From a virus (Duplodnaviria; Heunggongvirae; Uroviricota; Caudoviricetes), in IMG/VR virus record IMGVR_UViG_2671180727_000008, positions 1 to 5,133 of that record: a stretch of 5,133 nucleotides of DNA; one strand, written 5' to 3'. Below are positions 1 to 5,133 of this stretch, piece after piece. The stretch's first letter is position 1. Each line of letters starts with the position of its first letter. Under the pieces are notes generated by a model. That model saw nothing but the letters and a program-made list of their open reading frames with translations. It ran no database searches and was not told where the DNA came from. The translations under genes were made by a program, and so were the position numbers.

Positions 1-74
1 CGTGTACGCCGCAATGCACGGGATGGTCGCTATAAGCTGATTGGTTGATGAAATTAGGGCCCGCTCTGGCTGGC

Positions 75-271
75 GGGTCCTTTCCGGTGATCCAGAACGT
101 TACGGGGCGTCAGGCGCGCAGTTTTTCGCTATTTGTGAAAATTTTCCGGTTTAAGGCGTTTCCGTTCTTCTTCGTCGTAACTTAATGTTTTTATTTAAAA
201 TACCCCCTGAAAAGAAAGGAAATGACAGGCGCTGAAAACGGGCTTTTTGGCCTCTGCCGTTTCCTTTCTCT
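75..271 (+). other. cos: Phage cohesive-end packaging site (cos): right-end sequence, cosN-like nick region (about 96-120) and cosB with three R-type repeats (R3 157-170, inverted R2 about 213-226, R1 257-270) flanking an AT-rich, IHF-site-like spacer (171-210)
   Basis: Near-identical, by eye, to the lambda right-end/left-end junction as I recall it: '...ccggtgatcc-gttacg|gggcg...' followed by 'ttttcgctattt(g)tgaaaattttccggtttaaggcgtttccgttcttcttcgtc(g)taacttaatgtttttatttaaaatacc...gaaaagaaaggaaa(t)gacagg...ggctttttggcctctg(c)cgtttcctttctctg'. The repeat cgtttcc[g/t]ttct occurs twice directly and once inverted, which is the arrangement of the terminase small-subunit binding sites in lambda cosB. 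The 12-nt segment after 'gttacg' (104-115, gggcgtcaggcg) differs from the lambda cohesive end GGGCGGCGACCT, so this is a related but distinct cos. Similarity to lambda stops abruptly after 'cctttctctg' (about 271). Confidence 0.85.
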
Positions 272-772
272 GATTTTGTTGCTGTTTGTCACGGCCTATC
301 GCCAGAAAAAACTCTCATGCTTGCGTTGAAATCAGGCTCTACACTAAAGTAGTCGATAACGCGCCACTGGCTTCACTTTATGGTCGTGGCCTACTTCTGC
401 ACTATCGCAACAGCCTTACGAGTCCTGCTGGTAAGCTGTTGAGTAAGCAGAATACGGATTACAGGGCATCCTATGCGTATTGTGGTGGATCGAACACAAC
501 CGCTCAGGTGAAACCCGTTTCGTTACTATTATAGGAAAATCTTCATACCCAACTTGCTTGATAACTTCTTCTGGTTGTTTTAACCATGTAGAGATGATAT
601 TTCCCTGAAAAATTGCTTTCCCTCTGACTAGATGCGCATACCACATTTTGTCTTCGACATAGAACCGCGCAGAAATGATTACTCCACAGATACGGTTCTT
701 TCGTCAATTCATTATGGGATGGGCTCAAAAGGGAGAGCTCAACAATAAAGTTCTGGTAGGATAATTGTATGC

Positions 773-784
773 TTACAATTGTAA
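773..784. repeat. Perfect 12-bp palindrome TTACAATTGTAA in the AT-rich region upstream of the orphan gene; candidate operator
   Basis: Read directly: 773-784 ttacaattgtaa is its own reverse complement. The half-site-like 'aattgta' also occurs at 763-769. It lies about 190 bp upstream of the orphan CDS start. Confidence 0.45.
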
Positions 785-904
785 TGAAAGGAGAGTTAGA
801 GCCTGGTGTGATTCTGTGTGTAAAATTTTAGCAAATTACGTTTAATTAAGTGTCGTAACACACCATGCCTGTCAGATATTACACTTATCATAGAGTGTAT
901 GATA

Positions 905-934
905 TTGCTTTTCTAAACAATAAGCTGTTATATT
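905..934 (+). promoter_or_regulatory. Putative sigma70-type promoter for the orphan gene (-35 TTGCTT 905-910, 18-nt spacer, -10 TATATT 929-934)
   Basis: Hexamers read directly from sequence. The region is AT-rich, so such matches are frequent by chance; the position 40-70 bp upstream of the candidate start at 974 is suggestive only. Confidence 0.25.
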
Positions 935-973
935 TTATGGGTATTGTGTTTAATTTTTAATGACGGCTCTAAC

Positions 974-1909
974 ATGACCCCTGATGCAGTTTTGATTGCT
1001 AAAGCAATACTAATGTTGAAAGCAGATGTTGATTATACAAAAGATTATGTATTCCCTATTGCATTATCTTTTTTATCGGCGCTTATGGGAGGCTTAACTG
1101 CTTATTGCATCAATAATAGGCAAGAGAAGATTAAAATAGAAACGGAGAAATTTAATTCTGCTAATACGCTTATGATGGTTTCTTTTCAGATGATAAATAC
1201 ACTTGTGGGAATTAAAAGTAGTTATATTGGTTTGAGATCTAGAGATCCGATATTAAGAGCGCTGGCAATAAATGAATTTTTATTTAACGCCGGGGAGGTG
1301 AATTTCGATATTAGCCGTCTTTCATTTATAAAAAAGATACCCACAGCTAATAAATCTCTATTTGAGAGGTTTGTTTTTTTTATTAAGTACAAGATACTAA
1401 AACATGAACTTATTATGCCGTCAGATGAAGAAATTGGAAACTCATGGAGGAATATTGCTCGAATTGATGCTTTTTTGTTTAATTATAATTTTGTTTTGAA
1501 AAGTTTAGTTGTCAGGAATCAGCTTGATTCAGATTTAAAGAAACGTTTGTCTAATATTGCCAGTAAAGACAAGCCAGTGTTTGAAATTAAATTGGATGAA
1601 ATAAAGAAAGAAATTGGTGCTAGTGAGTTGTCAAAATATATTGATTTGACAGAAAGTATAGTGGCGTTGATCGATTATCTCATAATGGAAATTAATTCAT
1701 TTATTATGGAGTTCCCGAAGGTGGCGGAAAGTAATATTGAGTTATCTAAGGTGAATAAAGCTAAATTATCAACAATTGTTCTCAATAAGCCAGCATATTT
1801 GGCTGCATTGATTCCAATTCCACAACCTGACTTTGAATTAGTATCTTTACTAGTGGGTATGAGCCCAGAAGAAGCAAAGCAAAGATATTCGTATTCTGGT
1901 TGGCACTAG
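974..1909 (+). CDS. Hypothetical protein, 311 aa, with a predicted N-terminal transmembrane helix; orphan cargo (moron-like) gene, function unknown
   Basis: Long open frame (944..1909 in the ORF track) in DNA I estimate at roughly one-third G+C, where stops are frequent in non-coding frames, so a frame this long is unlikely by chance. The track start at 944 is TTG; the first ATG is 974, and another in-frame ATG is at 1013. No convincing Shine-Dalgarno precedes any of them, so the start is uncertain. The hydrophobic stretch YVFPIALSFLSALMGGLTAYCI (about residues 24-45 from 974) looks like one membrane-spanning helix, followed by a K/E/I/L/N-rich, probably helical, domain of about 265 aa. I see no Walker A, HxH, DxD or other catalytic motif. 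Same strand as the phage late genes. Confidence 0.75.
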   Translation: MTPDAVLIAKAILMLKADVDYTKDYVFPIALSFLSALMGGLTAYCINNRQEKIKIETEKFNSANTLMMVSFQMINTLVGIKSSYIGLRSRDPILRALAINEFLFNAGEVNFDISRLSFIKKIPTANKSLFERFVFFIKYKILKHELIMPSDEEIGNSWRNIARIDAFLFNYNFVLKSLVVRNQLDSDLKKRLSNIASKDKPVFEIKLDEIKKEIGASELSKYIDLTESIVALIDYLIMEINSFIMEFPKVAESNIELSKVNKAKLSTIVLNKPAYLAALIPIPQPDFELVSLLVGMSPEEAKQRYSYSGWH

Positions 1910-2038
1910 TAGATATAGTGACATACCTTTGCGAAGCGCTGTATTGCTACGTGTATTGCTTTTTAGCTGTGTTTTGATAGAGAGAGCCATTTATTTCATT
2001 AAAAATCATTCAGTTCCTTTCATATTTGACTCATGTAG

Positions 2039-2830
2039 CCGAAACACGAATTTAATTACCAGCAGGCGGTTGAGCGCCTTCCTGGTGAAGATCCGGCTCA
2101 ACTGAACGATCCGGCTTACCGCCGTCTGCGTATCATTACCGATAACCTCAAACAGGAAGAGCACGCGATTGTCCAGGTGGAAGAAATACAGGCGGTAAAT
2201 GCTGTGTTGTATGGCAAATATACGATGGAAGGAGACCAGTTCGAGAAAATTGAGGTCGATTTTGGCAGGTCGACGAAGAATAACATCACTCAGGGTAGTG
2301 GTAAGGAGTGGTCAAAACAGGATCGTGACACGTTCGATCCTACACATGATCTTGACCTCTACTGCGACCAGGCCAGCGGTCTTGTGAATATTGCCATTAT
2401 GGACGGTACCGTCTGGCGTCTTCTGAATGGTTTTAAGCTGTTCCGCGAAAAACTGGATACCCGTCGCGGTTCAAATTCTCAACTCGAAACGGCAGTGAAA
2501 GATCTGGGCGCAGTGGTGTCCTTCAAGGGGTATTACGGCGATCTGGCCATTGTGGTGGCGAAAACGTCTTATATAGCAGAAGACGGTATCGAAAAACGTT
2601 ATCTGCCGGAGGGCATGCTGGTTCTGGGGAATACTGCTGCAGATGGGATCCGTTGTTACGGTGCCATTCAGGATGCGCAGGCGTTGTCCGAAGGTGTGGT
2701 GGCCTCTTCCCGTTATCCGAAACACTGGCTGACGGTGGGGGATCCCGCCCGTGAATTTACCATGACGCAGTCCGCGCCGCTGATGGTGTTGCCGGACCCG
2801 GATGAGTTTGTGGTGGTACAGGTGAAATAA
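2039..2830 (+). pseudogene. E: Major capsid protein E, 5'-truncated (C-terminal about three-quarters only; no start codon or RBS at the junction)
   Basis: The frame opens right after an in-frame TAG at 2036-2038 and translates PKHEFNYQQAVERLPGEDPAQLNDPAYRRLRIITDNLKQEEHAIVQVEEIQAVNAVLYGKYTMEGDQFEKIEVDFGRS...TRRGSNSQLETAVKDLG...RYPKHWLTVGDPAREFTMTQSAPLMVLPDPDEFVVVQVK. This aligns by eye with lambda gpE from about residue 80 (..PKHEVNPQMTLRRLPDEDPQNLADPAYRRRRII..) to its C-terminus (..GDPAREFTMIQSAPLMLLADPDEFVSVQLA). The ORF track entry 2177..2830 is the same frame called from an internal GTG. The sequence upstream of 2036 is AT-rich and unrelated to the E N-terminus. Confidence 0.9.
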
Positions 2831-2837
2831 TCCGTGA

Positions 2838-2868
2838 GCGGGGGCGAAATGCCCCCGTGTCTTTTTTC
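2838..2868 (+). terminator. Rho-independent terminator-like hairpin (7-bp G/C stem cgggggc/gcccccg, 5-nt loop gaaat) followed by a T-tract, between E and FI
   Basis: Read directly: 2839-2845 cgggggc, loop 2846-2850 gaaat, 2851-2857 gcccccg (perfect complement), then tgtcttttttcac with a run of six T at 2862-2867. It sits 8 nt after the E stop codon (2828-2830). Confidence 0.6.
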
Positions 2869-2881
2869 ACAGGGGGCTGAT

Positions 2882-3256
2882 ATGGCAACGAAAGAGCAAA
2901 ATCTGAAACGGCTTGATGAACTGGCCCTGATTCTGGGGCGTGAGCCGGATATATCCGGGAGTGCCGCAGAGATAGCGCAGCGGGTGGCGGAATGGGAAGA
3001 GGAAATACAGTCATCCGGCGAGGATGTTCAGGTTGGGGATACGGTGATCCGGGAGCGGGAAACCGCGGCTCATGATGTTCGTGAGGATACATCCGGTGCG
3101 TTAACGCGCATCAGAGTTCTGACCTGCCTCCATCTCTGTGGCATTGATGGTGAAACAGGGGAATCCGTTGAGATTGCGGATGTTGGTCGGGTGATTCTGA
3201 TTATGTCCTCAGATGCAAAAACACACGTTGATGGCGGAATGGCTGTTTATGCGTGA
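2882..3256 (+). CDS. FI: DNA-packaging / head assembly protein FI (lambda gpFI homolog), 124 aa
   Basis: ATG at 2882 preceded by SD-like 'aggggg' (2871-2876). The N-terminal region MATKEQNLKRLDELALILGREPDISGSAAEIAQRVAEWEEEIQ resembles lambda FI (MTKDELIARLRSLGEQLNRDVSLTGTKEELALRVAELKEELDD, as recalled). Position immediately after E matches lambda gene order. The track ORF 2834..3256 starts from an upstream GTG that lies inside the terminator hairpin, so 2882 is preferred. Confidence 0.8.
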   Translation: MATKEQNLKRLDELALILGREPDISGSAAEIAQRVAEWEEEIQSSGEDVQVGDTVIRERETAAHDVREDTSGALTRIRVLTCLHLCGIDGETGESVEIADVGRVILIMSSDAKTHVDGGMAVYA

Positions 3257-3602
3257 TTTTCAGAATGCCTTTGATGCTGCCCTTGCCGGGGTGGACAGTA
3301 CGATTGTTGAAGTGATGGGGCTCTGTGCACAGTTCACCTCGGGGGCACAGTGTGGCGGAGAAGTTCAGGGGGTTTTTGACGATCCGGAGTCGCTGGGATT
3401 TGCCGGTAGCGGGGTCCGTATTGAAGGAAGCAGCCCGTCATTATTTGTGCGGACGGATACGGTTCGTGCTGTGCGGCGTGGTGACACGCTGACCATTAAT
3501 GGTGAGACGTTCTGGGTGGATCGTGTTTCTCCGGATGACGGGGGCAGCTGTTATCTCTGGCTCAACCGTGGGCAACCACCCGCCGTTAACCGGCGACGAT
3601 AA
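3249..3602 (+). CDS. FII: Head-tail joining / tail attachment protein FII (lambda gpFII homolog), 117 aa
   Basis: MRDFQNAFDAALAGVDSTIVEVMGLCAQFTSGAQCGGEVQGVFDDPESLGFAGSGVRIEGSSPSLFVRTDTVRAVRRGDTLTINGETFWVDRVSPDDGGSCYLWLNRGQPPAVNRRR aligns along its full length with lambda gpFII (MADFDNLFDAAIARADETIRG...GVFDDPENISYAGQGVRVEGSSPSLFVRTDEVRQLRRGDTLTI...FWVDRVSPDDGGSCHLWLGRGVPPAVNRRR). The start at 3249 is chosen by homology; the track ORF starts at an upstream in-frame ATG (3213). The start overlaps the FI stop (ATGCGTGA), suggesting translational coupling. Confidence 0.92.
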   Translation: MRDFQNAFDAALAGVDSTIVEVMGLCAQFTSGAQCGGEVQGVFDDPESLGFAGSGVRIEGSSPSLFVRTDTVRAVRRGDTLTINGETFWVDRVSPDDGGSCYLWLNRGQPPAVNRRR

Positions 3603-3617
3603 ACGCAGGGTGAAATT

Positions 3618-4151
3618 ATGGCGATAAAAGGGCTTGAGCAGGCGATTGATAATCTGAGCCGGGTTCGTAAAAACGCCATTCCGGCGGCTTCTGCAATGAC
3701 CATTAACCGCGTGGCCACAACGGCGATTAATCAGTCTTCATCACAGGTTGCCCGGGAAACCAGGGTGAGACGGAAACTGGTTAAGGAACGGTCCAGACTG
3801 AAACGGGCCACGGTCAGAAATCCGAATGCCAGAATTATCGTTAACCGCGGTGATCTCCCGGTGATTAAGCTGGGGATCAGGATGCCGGGGCGTCGTCCGG
3901 ACAGCATACTCAAAGCCGGTCAGCATCGTTATCAGCGGGCATTTATTCAGCGATTAAAAAATGGTCGCTGGCATGTCATGCAGCGTGTGGTCGGGAAAAA
4001 CCGTTACCCCATTGATGTGGTGAAAATCCCGATGGCGGCCCCACTGAAACAGGCGTTTGATGAGAATGTTGACCGTATCCGGCGTGAACGTCTGCCCGGA
4101 GAACTGGCATACGCGCTGAAACAACAACTGAGGATTGCGATAAAACGATGA
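3618..4151 (+). CDS. Z: Minor tail protein Z (lambda gpZ homolog), 177 aa
   Basis: MAIKGLEQAIDNLSRVRKNAIPAASAMTINRVATTAINQSSSQVARETRVRRKLVKERSRLKRATVRNPNARIIVNRGDLPVIKLG...AFIQRLKNGRWHVMQRVVGKNRYPIDVVKIPMAAPL...[25 protein letters not shown] closely matches lambda gpZ at both ends. A central segment (about residues 86-110) is shorter and divergent relative to lambda Z as I recall it. ATG at 3618 has SD-like 'gcagggtga' upstream. Confidence 0.9.
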   Translation: MAIKGLEQAIDNLSRVRKNAIPAASAMTINRVATTAINQSSSQVARETRVRRKLVKERSRLKRATVRNPNARIIVNRGDLPVIKLGIRMPGRRPDSILKAGQHRYQRAFIQRLKNGRWHVMQRVVGKNRYPIDVVKIPMAAPLKQAFDENVDRIRRERLPGELAYALKQQLRIAIKR

Positions 4152-4543
4152 AACATACTGATATCCGTGCTGCAGTGCTGGATGCACTGGAGCTGCATGA
4201 ACACGGGGCGACGCTGTTTGATGGTCGCCCCGTTGTTTTTGACGAAGAGGATTTTCCCGCGGTCGCGGTTTATCTGACGGATGCAGAGTATACCGGTGAA
4301 GAGCTGGATGCAGATACCTGGCGGGCCACACTGCATATTGAGGTGTTTTTACCAGCACAGGTACCGGATTCGGAGCTGGATTCGTGGATGGAAAGCCGGA
4401 TTTATCCGGCGATGACTGCGATCCCGGCACTGGCAGACCTGATTACCACGATGGTTACGCAGGGCTATGAGTATCGTCGTGATGACGATATGGCGTTATG
4501 GAGTTCTGCGGATCTGACTTATTCCATTACATACGAGATGTGA
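4148..4543 (+). CDS. U: Tail tube terminator protein U (lambda gpU homolog), 131 aa
   Basis: [131 protein letters not shown] is collinear with lambda gpU and the same length (131 aa). The start overlaps the Z stop (ATGA). Confidence 0.95.
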
Positions 4544-4550
4544 GGACGAT

Positions 4551-5133
4551 ATGTCAACACCAAATCCCCTTGAGCCGGTAAAAGGTGCCGGTACCACCCT
4601 GTGGGTTTATAACGGTCAGGGTGACGCCTATGCAAACCCGTTGTCAGACGATGACTGGCTGCGACTGGCTAAGGTGAAGGATCTGACGCCGGGCGAGATG
4701 ACGGCAGAACCCTACGATGATAACTACCTGGATGATGAAGACGCGGACTGGACCGCGACCGGGCAGGGGCAGAAGTCTGCAGGAGATACCAGTTTTACGC
4801 TGGCCTGGAAACCGGGAGAAGAAGGTCAGAAAGGGCTTATAGGCTGGTTTGAAAGCGGGGATGTGCGGGCCTATAAAATCCGTTTTCCGAACGGCACGGT
4901 GGATGTGTTTCGTGGCTGGGTCAGCAGTATCGGTAAGGCCGTGACGGCGAAAGAAGTGATCACCCGCACGGTGAAAGTGACCAACGTGGGCAAACCTTCT
5001 GTAGCGGAAGAACGCAGCAAAATTACGCCGGTCACTGCGATTAAGGTGACGCCGACATCCGGTACGGTGGCAAAAGGGAAAACAACCACCCTGACGGTTT
5101 CTTTTGAGCCGGAAAGTGCAACCGACAAGACGT
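4551..5133 (+). CDS. V: Major tail protein V (lambda gpV homolog), N-terminal 194 codons; CDS continues beyond the window end
   Basis: ATG at 4551 preceded by SD 'gagga' (4542-4546). The translation [86 protein letters not shown]...[44 protein letters not shown]... matches lambda gpV (..[123 protein letters not shown]..). It is missing from the ORF track only because there is no stop codon before the window ends. Confidence 0.95.

Follow-up and report, generated by a model that had tools for sequence, protein, structure and literature searches.

Positions 1-2046 of the 5,133-nucleotide stretch of DNA analysed here (the window) very probably form the right-hand end of an integrated phage satellite, belonging to the helper-embedded PICI (HE-PICI) class, 11capE type, at site E:Phage_cap_E:80, a reading to which we assign a probability of about 0.87. 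This explanation accounts best for the window by joining the right end of the satellite, which comprises the end of an AlpA-like gene, a cos sequence, a cargo slot, an arm motif and the attR core, to the capsid gene E of a prophage from 2037. The window opens 75 bp before cos, and the remainder of the satellite and the left half of its helper were read from related genomes only. The element class is already published and no new kind of system is added here. Tommasini, Mageeney & Williams (2023, NAR Genom Bioinform; PMC10111431) described HE-PICI Eco567.11capE as an island of ~11 kb in E with its own capsid gene, and reported 201 instances at the E site (collection n=220), a 10-bp identity block and a segment of 258 bp that shares 90% identity with the cos of the helper.

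Structure of the window

Sequence comparison divides the window into three blocks, a lambda-like cos (75-279), unrelated DNA (280-2036) and gene E again from 2037 (Table 1); similarity to phage ends at 279 and restarts at 2037 within E. The succession of cos, unrelated DNA and mid-E on which the original prediction was built is borne out, as is the absence of Nu1, A, W, B, C and D from the interval, none of which lies in 280-2036. The non-coding backbone that follows cos occupies the place where Nu1 starts in phages. Over positions 1-463 the window aligns at 86% identity with the TIR-cargo satellite of MLI108K3. A promoter and terminator scan of 1-2900 found no enrichment, the sole terminator-like site being a hairpin at 2838-2858, after E.

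Table 1. Features of the window, with strand and the basis of each assignment
Feature	Positions	Strand	Basis
AlpA-like winged-helix gene, 3' end (last 15 codons and stop; 127 aa)	1-48	+	Strain 10 CDS L001 19665-20048 ends at window 48
cosQ GGGTCCT	75-81	+	Same in all aligned satellite and phage cos sequences
cosN region	97-124	+	Alignment with lambda, mismatch list
cosB, lambda-type R3, I1 region, R2, R1	157-269	+	Alignment with lambda/DE3 and helper cos of strain 10 and MLI108K3
Non-coding satellite backbone	280-463	.	Common to sister satellites; 0 genes annotated or called there in genomes compared
Variable cargo slot, GC about 30-40%	464-2002	.	No similarity to sister satellites from ~464 to ~2003-2018; GC profile
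Cargo gene, 311 aa	974-1909	+	N-terminal hydrophobic helix, then helical bundles
Doubled TGTATTGC motif, arm-type site of attP/attR, diagnostic of HE-PICIs	1938-1960	+	Paired repeat copy next to int
attR core AGCCGAAACA, crossover with prophage gene E	2037-2046	+	10-bp identity block, empty-site comparison
Helper major capsid gene E, 3' fragment, codons ~80-342, phage-21-like allele	2039-2830	+	Pfam Phage_cap_E
Helper FI	2882-3256	+	Pfam Packaging_FI; annotation of identical O145 prophage
Helper FII	3249-3602	+	Pfam Phage_attach; annotation of identical O145 prophage
Helper Z	3618-4151	+	Pfam Minor_tail_Z; annotation of identical O145 prophage
Helper U	4148-4543	+	Pfam Phage_tail_U; annotation of identical O145 prophage
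Helper V, cut by window end	4551-5133	+	Pfam Phage_TTP_12; annotation of identical O145 prophage

The AlpA-like gene stands directly upstream of cos. Its 127-aa product matches Pfam PF05930 (Phage_AlpA), is 36% identical to the satellite's own AlpA, and has an AlpA family regulator as its best PDB match (E 2e-9), with no other chain below E 0.45 in a phmmer search of the PDB; similarity to the Nu1 winged helix is weak (E 0.15). An Rpp-like role for this protein, the only candidate next to cos, was considered and rejected at the sequence level, there being no phmmer match to any Rpp chain (RppC entries 6HLK/6HN7) and the protein being an AlpA paralogue by sequence.

Insertion into gene E

The right-end 2 kb, at 99.95% identity, follows a complete satellite of ~11.2 kb in other genomes, where the gene order is int, AlpA, Bro-zone genes, primase, SSB, E-like capsid, D-like decoration, AlpA-like, cos, cargo and attR. 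In strain 10, MLI108K3 and K56-43-un, TerS/Nu1, TerL, W, portal, S49 protease, D and an 82-codon E fragment stand directly left of int, and the 3' fragment of E stands directly right of the satellite, the insertion point being E codon ~79-80. Contigs encoding an identical 311-aa cargo protein keep the order int ... cap-dec-AlpA-like, cargo, prophage FI-FII-Z-U without exception (10/10), and in six of the ten the E 3' fragment is called between the cargo gene and FI; the int and AlpA left end, the primase/SSB zone and the late-zone capsid gene, which all lie outside the window, are present in these ten contigs and in L001 of strain 10.

A 10-bp core, AGCCGAAGCA, flanks the strain 10 element on either side (L001 10868-10877 and 22037-22046, 11,169 bp apart), and the window displays attR only, AGCCGAAACA. 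The uninterrupted attB of O145 RM9872 reads ...gtcaAGCCGAAACAcgaattt..., and the intact E gene at this empty site (342 aa) is 100% identical to the window from 2037 (codon 79). The window copy of the doubled TGTATTGC motif ends 81 bp before the core centre, and a second copy, adjacent to int (L001 ~11004-11030), begins ~132 bp past the centre of the attL core; both spacings agree with those published for the doubled arm motif tgTGTATTGCantgTGTATTGCa, ~81 bp upstream of the attP centre and ~132 bp downstream of it (PMC10111431). The cargo gene, the AlpA-like gene and E all lie on the + strand, so that the insert is co-oriented with the capsid gene. The junction is a site-specific att core.

Terminase, portal and the rest of the head module, which had been taken to be deleted, are present to the left of the ~11-kb element in related complete genomes, an arrangement that the original prediction had itself named as refuting it. 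The interval is an insertion joined at a clean site-specific att core and not a deletion scar; the deletion reading fails because those genomes keep the head genes directly left of the integrated element, and the proposal of ordinary prophage decay that spared cos gives way to insertion at an att core.

The E fragment, in translation, aligns to positions 77-329 of the Pfam Phage_cap_E profile and is 96.7% identical to gene 7 of phage 21; from 2037 the sequence agrees at 100% with intact E genes of O145 prophages. Positions 1-2043 are 99.95% identical to satellites lodged in lambda-like E alleles, and this identity is lost exactly within the core, where the window passes into its phage-21-like allele; such a core-bounded switch of E allele points to an independent site-specific integration. 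Coverage of the full window at >=80% was found in 0/5,426 complete E. coli genomes, and a 49-mer spanning the junction had no match in the genome contigs searched. A 36-mer likewise had none in the metagenome contigs, a 30-mer matched a single IMG/VR contig (L020), whose cargo is different, and no record of the truncated-E product was found.

The cos sequence

Positions 73-279 share ~90-92% identity with the cos regions of lambdoid phages, among them the 'cos site' annotated in phage DE3 (E 2e-77 to 4e-73). With cosQ and the R sites placed as in lambda cos, cosQ matches lambda at 7/7 bases, R3 (CGTTTCCGTTCT, 157-168) at 12/12, the inverted R2 (213-224) at 11/12 and R1 (CGTTTCCTTTCT, 258-269) at 12/12. 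At 105-116 lies the predicted 12-nt cohesive end, GGGCGTCAGGCG where lambda has GGGCGGCGACCT, with 7/12 bases matching and 5/12 differing, and beyond it there are two further differences, at 120 and 122. Eleven of the 20 mismatches to lambda in 75-279 fall within 94-122. The claim that cosN and the three R repeats were conserved almost base-for-base thus stands for the R repeats and fails for cosN, which is the most diverged part of a cos whose cosQ and R sites are almost unchanged.

The cos alignment had suggested that the variant cosN was specific to satellites, but this was ruled out by four IMG/VR loci in phage context with the same cohesive end. In all, the variant end GGGCGTCAGGCG was found in 52 satellite loci and these 4 phage-context loci, three of which have Nu1 and TerL following in the fetched DNA, 98-99% identical to those of lambda-type helpers. 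Its occurrence in these phage-context loci suggests that the variant cosN can be cleaved. A literature search for the variant cohesive-end sequence returned nothing relevant. The window cos is plausibly functional, given that its cosQ and R sites match those of resident helpers and that its cosN also occurs in phage contexts; against this, the cohesive end of the satellite differs at 5/12 bases from the cos of the helpers in which it sits.

We collected 80 satellites via the AlpA-like protein, a search independent of the cos sequence, and 79 were informative. None of these (0/79) paired a cosN of lambda type with a cosB of lambda type. Satellites that, like the window's, lack a lambda-like TerS and have R sites of lambda or near-lambda type all had the variant end GGGCGTCAGGCG, and a lambda cohesive end was always accompanied by a different cosB and the satellite's own TerS.

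The cargo slot

Sister satellites have TIR, Abi, TerS or other genes in this slot. The N-terminal hydrophobic helix of the 311-aa protein encoded here is probably membrane-spanning. Searches of Pfam, NCBIfam and PADLOC for its function gave nothing convincing, its sole PHROG is one of unknown function, all of its homologues are hypothetical proteins, and literature searches by accession found no match. The cargo gene may be of benefit to host or satellite, plausibly by acting against phages.

Packaging and alternative explanations

For the founder element, in NRG857c, mitomycin induction causes the composite of prophage and satellite to excise and replicate, after which the satellite excises precisely and restores E, an excision measured by qPCR and sequencing (PMC10111431). 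The excised satellite would then rely on its own primase and origin for replication, its lambda-type R3, R2 and R1 would be bound by the TerS (Nu1) belonging to the terminase of a lambda-type helper, TerL would nick its cosN, and the packaged DNA would receive helper tails. This use of cos is an inference; an attempt by the authors of PMC10111431 to demonstrate virions of this satellite type failed. The suggestion of a cos satellite that lacks terminase and is packaged in trans was essentially right, although the satellite is an insert of ~11 kb and not a truncated prophage.

That a lambdoid prophage lost or replaced everything from Nu1 to mid-E, sparing cos by chance, with the low-GC segment of 1.7 kb as a moron or filler, is what the window viewed alone would show (cos, foreign DNA, mid-E), and decay does occur around such elements, the region left of a sister satellite in IAI39 having been lost to an IS3 element. 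We nevertheless regard such a loss as extremely improbable. The DNA left of cos is the end of the satellite's AlpA-like gene and not phage DNA (Rz and lambdap79 in lambda), the alignment diverging upstream of column 14; phage lysis genes directly left of position 1 are excluded by the sequence of 1-74; the right junction coincides exactly with the 10-bp att core, from which the HE-PICI arm motif is 81 bp distant; and in three complete genomes the head genes lie 11 kb leftward. Granted that the element is a satellite, it is possible, though less likely than not, that it builds its own capsids from E-like and D-like proteins for an 11-kb genome, with portal, protease, terminase and tails from the helper. 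Every satellite of this type carries, directly upstream of cos, homologues of D and of E, the latter 346 aa long and ~42-45% identical to the helper's E, and 11.2 kb is ~23% of the lambda genome, which, judged from lambda packaging limits, would fall short of what a lambda-size head requires unless multimers were packaged. EcCICFT073, the best-studied relative, nonetheless goes into phage-sized capsids (PMC6739421), and knockout of a PICI capsid gene was tolerated (PMC10111431).

The identity of the helper bears on a further explanation, namely that the HE-PICI is stranded at this site by a mismatch of terminase and cosB, a defective helper or a damaged left part, its cos then doing nothing unless superinfection brings in a compatible lambda-type phage. 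Two genomes with a phage-21-like E allele were examined, and in neither is the terminase small subunit or cosB of lambda type: O145 RM9872, whose allele is identical to that of the window, has a 21-type cosB and TerS, and K56-43-un (allele 97.8% identical) has another non-lambda TerS, its satellite bringing its own TerS and cosB. Because the window satellite lacks its own TerS and its R sites are of lambda type, and the terminases found with this allele elsewhere are non-lambda, it may depend for packaging on a helper other than the resident prophage. In strain 10 frameshifts affect several helper tail genes, and the satellite int is truncated in IAI39; PMC10111431 notes that many helpers look truncated and that satellites of this kind may await a new one. 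On the other hand, lambdoid head modules are mosaic and a lambda-type Nu1 could lie upstream, in the left arm of the helper that the window does not include, and the near-identity of the satellite across genomes and its fresh integration junction argue for recent activity. We consider stranding unlikely, and prefer to read the window as the end of an HE-PICI that a lambda-type helper would package.

Relationship to known elements

The element shares with the 11capE group its position at codon ~80 of a lambdoid capsid gene, co-orientation with that gene, the 10-bp block, the doubled TGTATTGC at the published spacing, a size of ~11 kb, the order int-AlpA-Bro zone-primase-SSB-capsid (from related genomes), a cos-like segment ~90% identical to helper cos, and the lack of terS. 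Nothing essential separates the two, the window copy being distinguished by its particular 311-aa cargo gene and its phage-21-like E allele. The paper on that group does not dissect cos (PMC10111431), and the variant cohesive end and the combinations of cosN and cosB are not noted there.

EcCICFT073 and other Rpp-type cos PICIs (Fillol-Salom et al. 2018, 2019; PMC6092414, PMC6739421) are likewise Gram-negative elements with no terS, a cos near the 3' end, and similar size and zone organisation, and they need a lambda/80-type helper terminase, as the present satellite would. In EcCICFT073, however, cosQ and cosN are phage-like and an unrelated cosB is read by an Rpp-TerS heterodimer, whereas here cosB is lambda-type and cosN diverged; EcCICFT073 lies in the chromosome and not inside its helper. 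Relative to the cos of phage lambda itself, cosQ and the sites R3, R2 and R1 are conserved, as are the spacing of these elements and the I1 region that separates R3 from R2; the cohesive end (5/12 bases) and two flanking bases differ, and no Nu1 follows R1. Finally, cfPICIs (Alqurainy et al., bioRxiv 10.1101/2022.09.08.507074) resemble these satellites in encoding their own major capsid protein, but are reported to encode all capsid-making proteins and to borrow only helper tails, whereas the related complete elements here have only E-like and D-like genes and not a full set of capsid, portal, protease, head-tail connectors and terminase.

Significance

The window illustrates a trap for annotation, in that a 5-kb view of the right end of a satellite within a prophage mimics the loss of packaging and head genes with cos retained. 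It leaves as leads the variant cohesive end and the pairings of cosN with cosB, the possible mismatch of the lambda-type cosB with the non-lambda terminases found alongside this E allele in other genomes, and the cargo gene in a slot otherwise occupied by TIR or Abi. We attach low odds, well short of an even chance, to the proposal that the cos of this satellite family is kept distinct from that of the resident helper by either of two routes and, separately, that the 311-aa protein could be a new anti-phage gene. If selection and not shared descent is responsible, an altered cosN would offer, in addition to Rpp and cosB, a second way to separate the packaging or end-joining of a satellite from that of its helper, for example by stopping the ends of the satellite from annealing to those of the helper. 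The biology is the reverse of what the window appears to show: a mobile parasite splits its helper's capsid gene and holds it hostage until excision.

Insertion of a satellite in gene E

Window 73-279 is 90-92% identical to the cos regions of lambda and many other lambdoid phages (E-values around 1e-73 to 2e-77), and these matches include DE3, in which the stretch is annotated as 'cos site'. Comparison of the window with phages gave no similarity across 280-2036. From 2037 there follows a lambdoid late operon, in which Pfam matches identify the 3' portion of E followed by FI, FII, Z, U and V; the operon is 100% identical to E. coli O145 prophages and its E part is 96.7% identical to gene 7 of phage 21. 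The order proposed in the original prediction, of cos, then unrelated DNA, then the middle of E, is thus borne out in its coordinates by both sequence reading and phage comparison. A strong terminator-like hairpin (9-bp stem with 7 G-C pairs, then a T run) is located at 2838-2867, directly 3' of the E stop codon and between E and FI.

The prediction also held that the head module had been deleted between cos and E, and here related genomes contradict it, since they retain Nu1 through D to the left of an inserted element. Window 1-2050 is found as one block in seventeen complete E. coli genomes. In strain 10, the prophage genes nohA (Nu1), terminase large subunit, W, portal, S49 protease and D, with an 82-codon 5' fragment of E, precede an element that begins with genes for a tyrosine integrase, AlpA, DUF2971, SWIM, Icd-like and DUF4222 proteins, primase and SSB, and continues with a complete capsid gene resembling E, a decoration gene resembling D and the gene for a 127-aa AlpA-like protein (3' end at window position 48); on the right follow cos, the gene for a 311-aa protein and the remaining 3' fragment of E. 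This layout is repeated in MLI108K3 and K56-43-un and, within reach of their flanks, in 10/10 contigs with the exact 311-aa protein, while helper D or TerL lies left of the integrase gene in four IMG/VR loci (L022, L026, L049 and L142). A 10-bp direct repeat, AGCCGAAGCA, bounds the element, its copies being 11,169 bp apart, and the E gene of O145 RM9872 is uninterrupted, agreeing with the window at 100% identity from its codon 79 (window position 2037) onwards and having gtcaAGCCGAAACAcgaattt at the site. Occupied site, empty site and att core together are the signature of site-specific integration; the cos-to-E interval is an insertion and no head genes were deleted. The proposal of a cos satellite packaged in trans survives in spirit, although the object is different, the satellite being the 11-kb insert.

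Tommasini, Mageeney and Williams described in 2023 a class of 'helper-embedded PICIs', whose founder, the 11-kb island Eco567.11capE, is integrated into a lambdoid prophage's gene E and has its own capsid gene and a 10-bp identity block (PMC10111431). The site, named E:Phage_cap_E:80, has 201 instances, and a doubled TGTATTGC motif flanks the attP centre, 81 bp upstream of it and 132 bp downstream (PMC10111431). We recovered this doubled motif independently as repeat family D2, and the element is a member of the published class, which settles the identity of the feature. By qPCR and sequencing, the authors showed that the prophage-satellite composite is excised and replicated and that precise excision of the satellite comes afterwards; they failed to obtain virions of the element, noted that a 258-bp segment is 90% identical to the helper's cos, and presumed packaging by the helper's cos machinery (PMC10111431). 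Like them, we infer that packaging proceeds through the satellite cos.

Features of the satellite and of related loci
Feature	Position	Remark
Second AlpA-like winged-helix gene, 127 aa	window 1-48 (continues upstream; L001, the strain 10 locus, 19665-20048)	directly upstream of cos
cosQ	window 75-81	same as lambda
Predicted cohesive end	window 105-116	GGGCGTCAGGCG; lambda GGGCGGCGACCT
R3	window 157-168	same as lambda
R2	window 213-224	one base off lambda
R1	window 258-269	same as lambda
Doubled TGTATTGC motif, right arm	window 1938-1960	ends ~81 bp before core centre
Doubled TGTATTGC motif, integrase side	L001 ~11004-11030	~132 bp after core centre
Slot, MLI108K3	L013 18425-19567	TIR-domain gene
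Slot, IAI39		TIR-domain gene
Slot, K56-43-un	L152 17859-19852	abortive-infection family gene and TerS

Structure and distribution of the variant cos

The window cos was aligned with those of lambda/DE3, two resident helper prophages and three sister elements and the mismatches were listed, the cosQ and R-site positions being those we take from the known lambda cos. Almost base-for-base preservation, as originally claimed, holds for the R repeats but fails for cosN, where 5/12 bases of the cohesive end are changed. Two more changes from lambda follow at 120 and 122, and the interval 94-122 contains 11 of the 20 mismatches counted across 75-279. Compared with the helpers that harbour the satellite in strain 10 and MLI108K3, seven positions differ in 105-122 (the 12-nt end and next 6 bases), while cos outside this interval is ~95% identical.

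In this alignment, the variant cosN is common to all four satellites and the three cos sites from phages or helpers all have the lambda sequence, which suggested a satellite-specific sequence. A scan of IMG/VR for the variant returned 56 loci, 52 of them satellites; in nearly all of these, cos is preceded by the capsid, decoration and AlpA-like genes, and in the one that begins at cos (L017) it is followed by TIR cargo and the 3' fragment of E. The four remaining loci (L132, L137, L145 and L150) combine phage-type upstream sequence with lambda-type R sites, which rules out satellite specificity, and in three of them Nu1 and TerL are 98-99% identical to those of the strain 10 helper. Judged from these sequences, the variant is a natural allele of lambdoid cos and not a satellite invention, and the presence of near-identical terminases beside either cosN version argues that it is cleavable.

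We also tabulated cos types in 80 IMG/VR satellites (L051-L130) gathered through the AlpA-like protein, independently of cos sequence: 49 have the variant cosN, 29 the lambda type and 2 other versions. Within this sample, lambda-type and near-lambda R sites accompany the variant cosN only. Every lambda-type cosN in it is paired with a different cosB ('GGTGGTGG' type), downstream of which the satellite has a TerS of its own with 34-39% identity to Nu1; lambda cosN and lambda cosB occur together in 0/79 informative satellites. The two types combine non-randomly, a pairing that shared descent of cos modules may explain and that we regard as a lead rather than a result. EcCICFT073 presents the opposite pattern: its cosN and cosQ are phage-like and its foreign cosB is read by an Rpp-TerS heterodimer (PMC6739421), whereas here cosN has diverged and cosB is lambda-type.

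Genes flanking cos

The 127-aa AlpA-like gene adjoins cos in every satellite of this type, and its product, at 36% identity to the element's AlpA, is a paralogue of it. Alignment with the Nu1 DNA-binding domain is weak (31% over 48 aa, E 0.15), and the protein gave no sequence match to RppC.

Beyond cos, the slot between the conserved backbone, which extends to ~463, and the att arm, which begins at ~2003, shares no sequence with sister satellites, and its contents differ again in further satellites; this cos-to-attR slot (window 464-2002) looks like a swap site, a hotspot for defence or cargo. Immune systems are carried at the 5' or 3' ends of PICIs (PMC11364771). The window slot has a GC content of 30-40% and encodes the 311-aa protein, for which Pfam and NCBIfam gave no match and PADLOC no convincing one, and whose PHROG family is of unknown function. 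All source-named examples among its 17 homologues come from Enterobacteriaceae, and its confident model (pLDDT 85) has an N-terminal hydrophobic helix, then helical bundles. Its position in this slot allows a reasonable guess at a role in defence, and no more than a guess. About 190 bp upstream of the gene start, a perfect 7-bp inverted repeat seen by eye, AATTGTA-TGCT-TACAATT (window 763-780), may serve as an operator or form a small hairpin.

Mobility, decay and the resident helper

This copy shows signs of recent mobility. The satellites of L004, L005, L009 and L011, which sit in lambda-like E alleles, differ from window 1-2043 by one mismatch (99.95% identity), and similarity stops inside the att core, past which the window continues into a phage-21-like E allele and the others into the lambda-like one. 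Since the allele switches exactly at the core, these sequences indicate that nearly the same satellite was inserted separately, by integrase, into different helpers; homologous recombination further downstream does not fit a switch at that point.

The FII, Z, G, T and tape-measure genes of the strain 10 helper are annotated as frameshifted pseudogenes (L001 23279-28756); this helper is probably defective, though its satellite looks intact. IAI39 (L014 7430-9912) is an example of real decay around a prophage-satellite composite: an IS3 element truncates the satellite integrase, the helper has lost its left half, and the region adjoins tRNA-Arg and a second integrase fragment.

The E allele and helper late genes of the window (2037-5133) are phage-21-like, and its satellite has lambda-type R sites without a TerS. 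O145 RM9872, with the identical E allele, has a 21-type small terminase and cosB (L151 2380-3150); in K56-43-un, with a 97.8% identical E allele, the helper TerS and cosB are not lambda-type (L152 2660-3428), and the embedded satellite supplies a TerS of its own, with 48% identity to that of the helper, together with a matching cosB. If the left arm of the window's helper, which lies outside the window, resembles these two, the satellite's cos may go unrecognised by the resident prophage, and packaging would then depend on a helper of lambda type.
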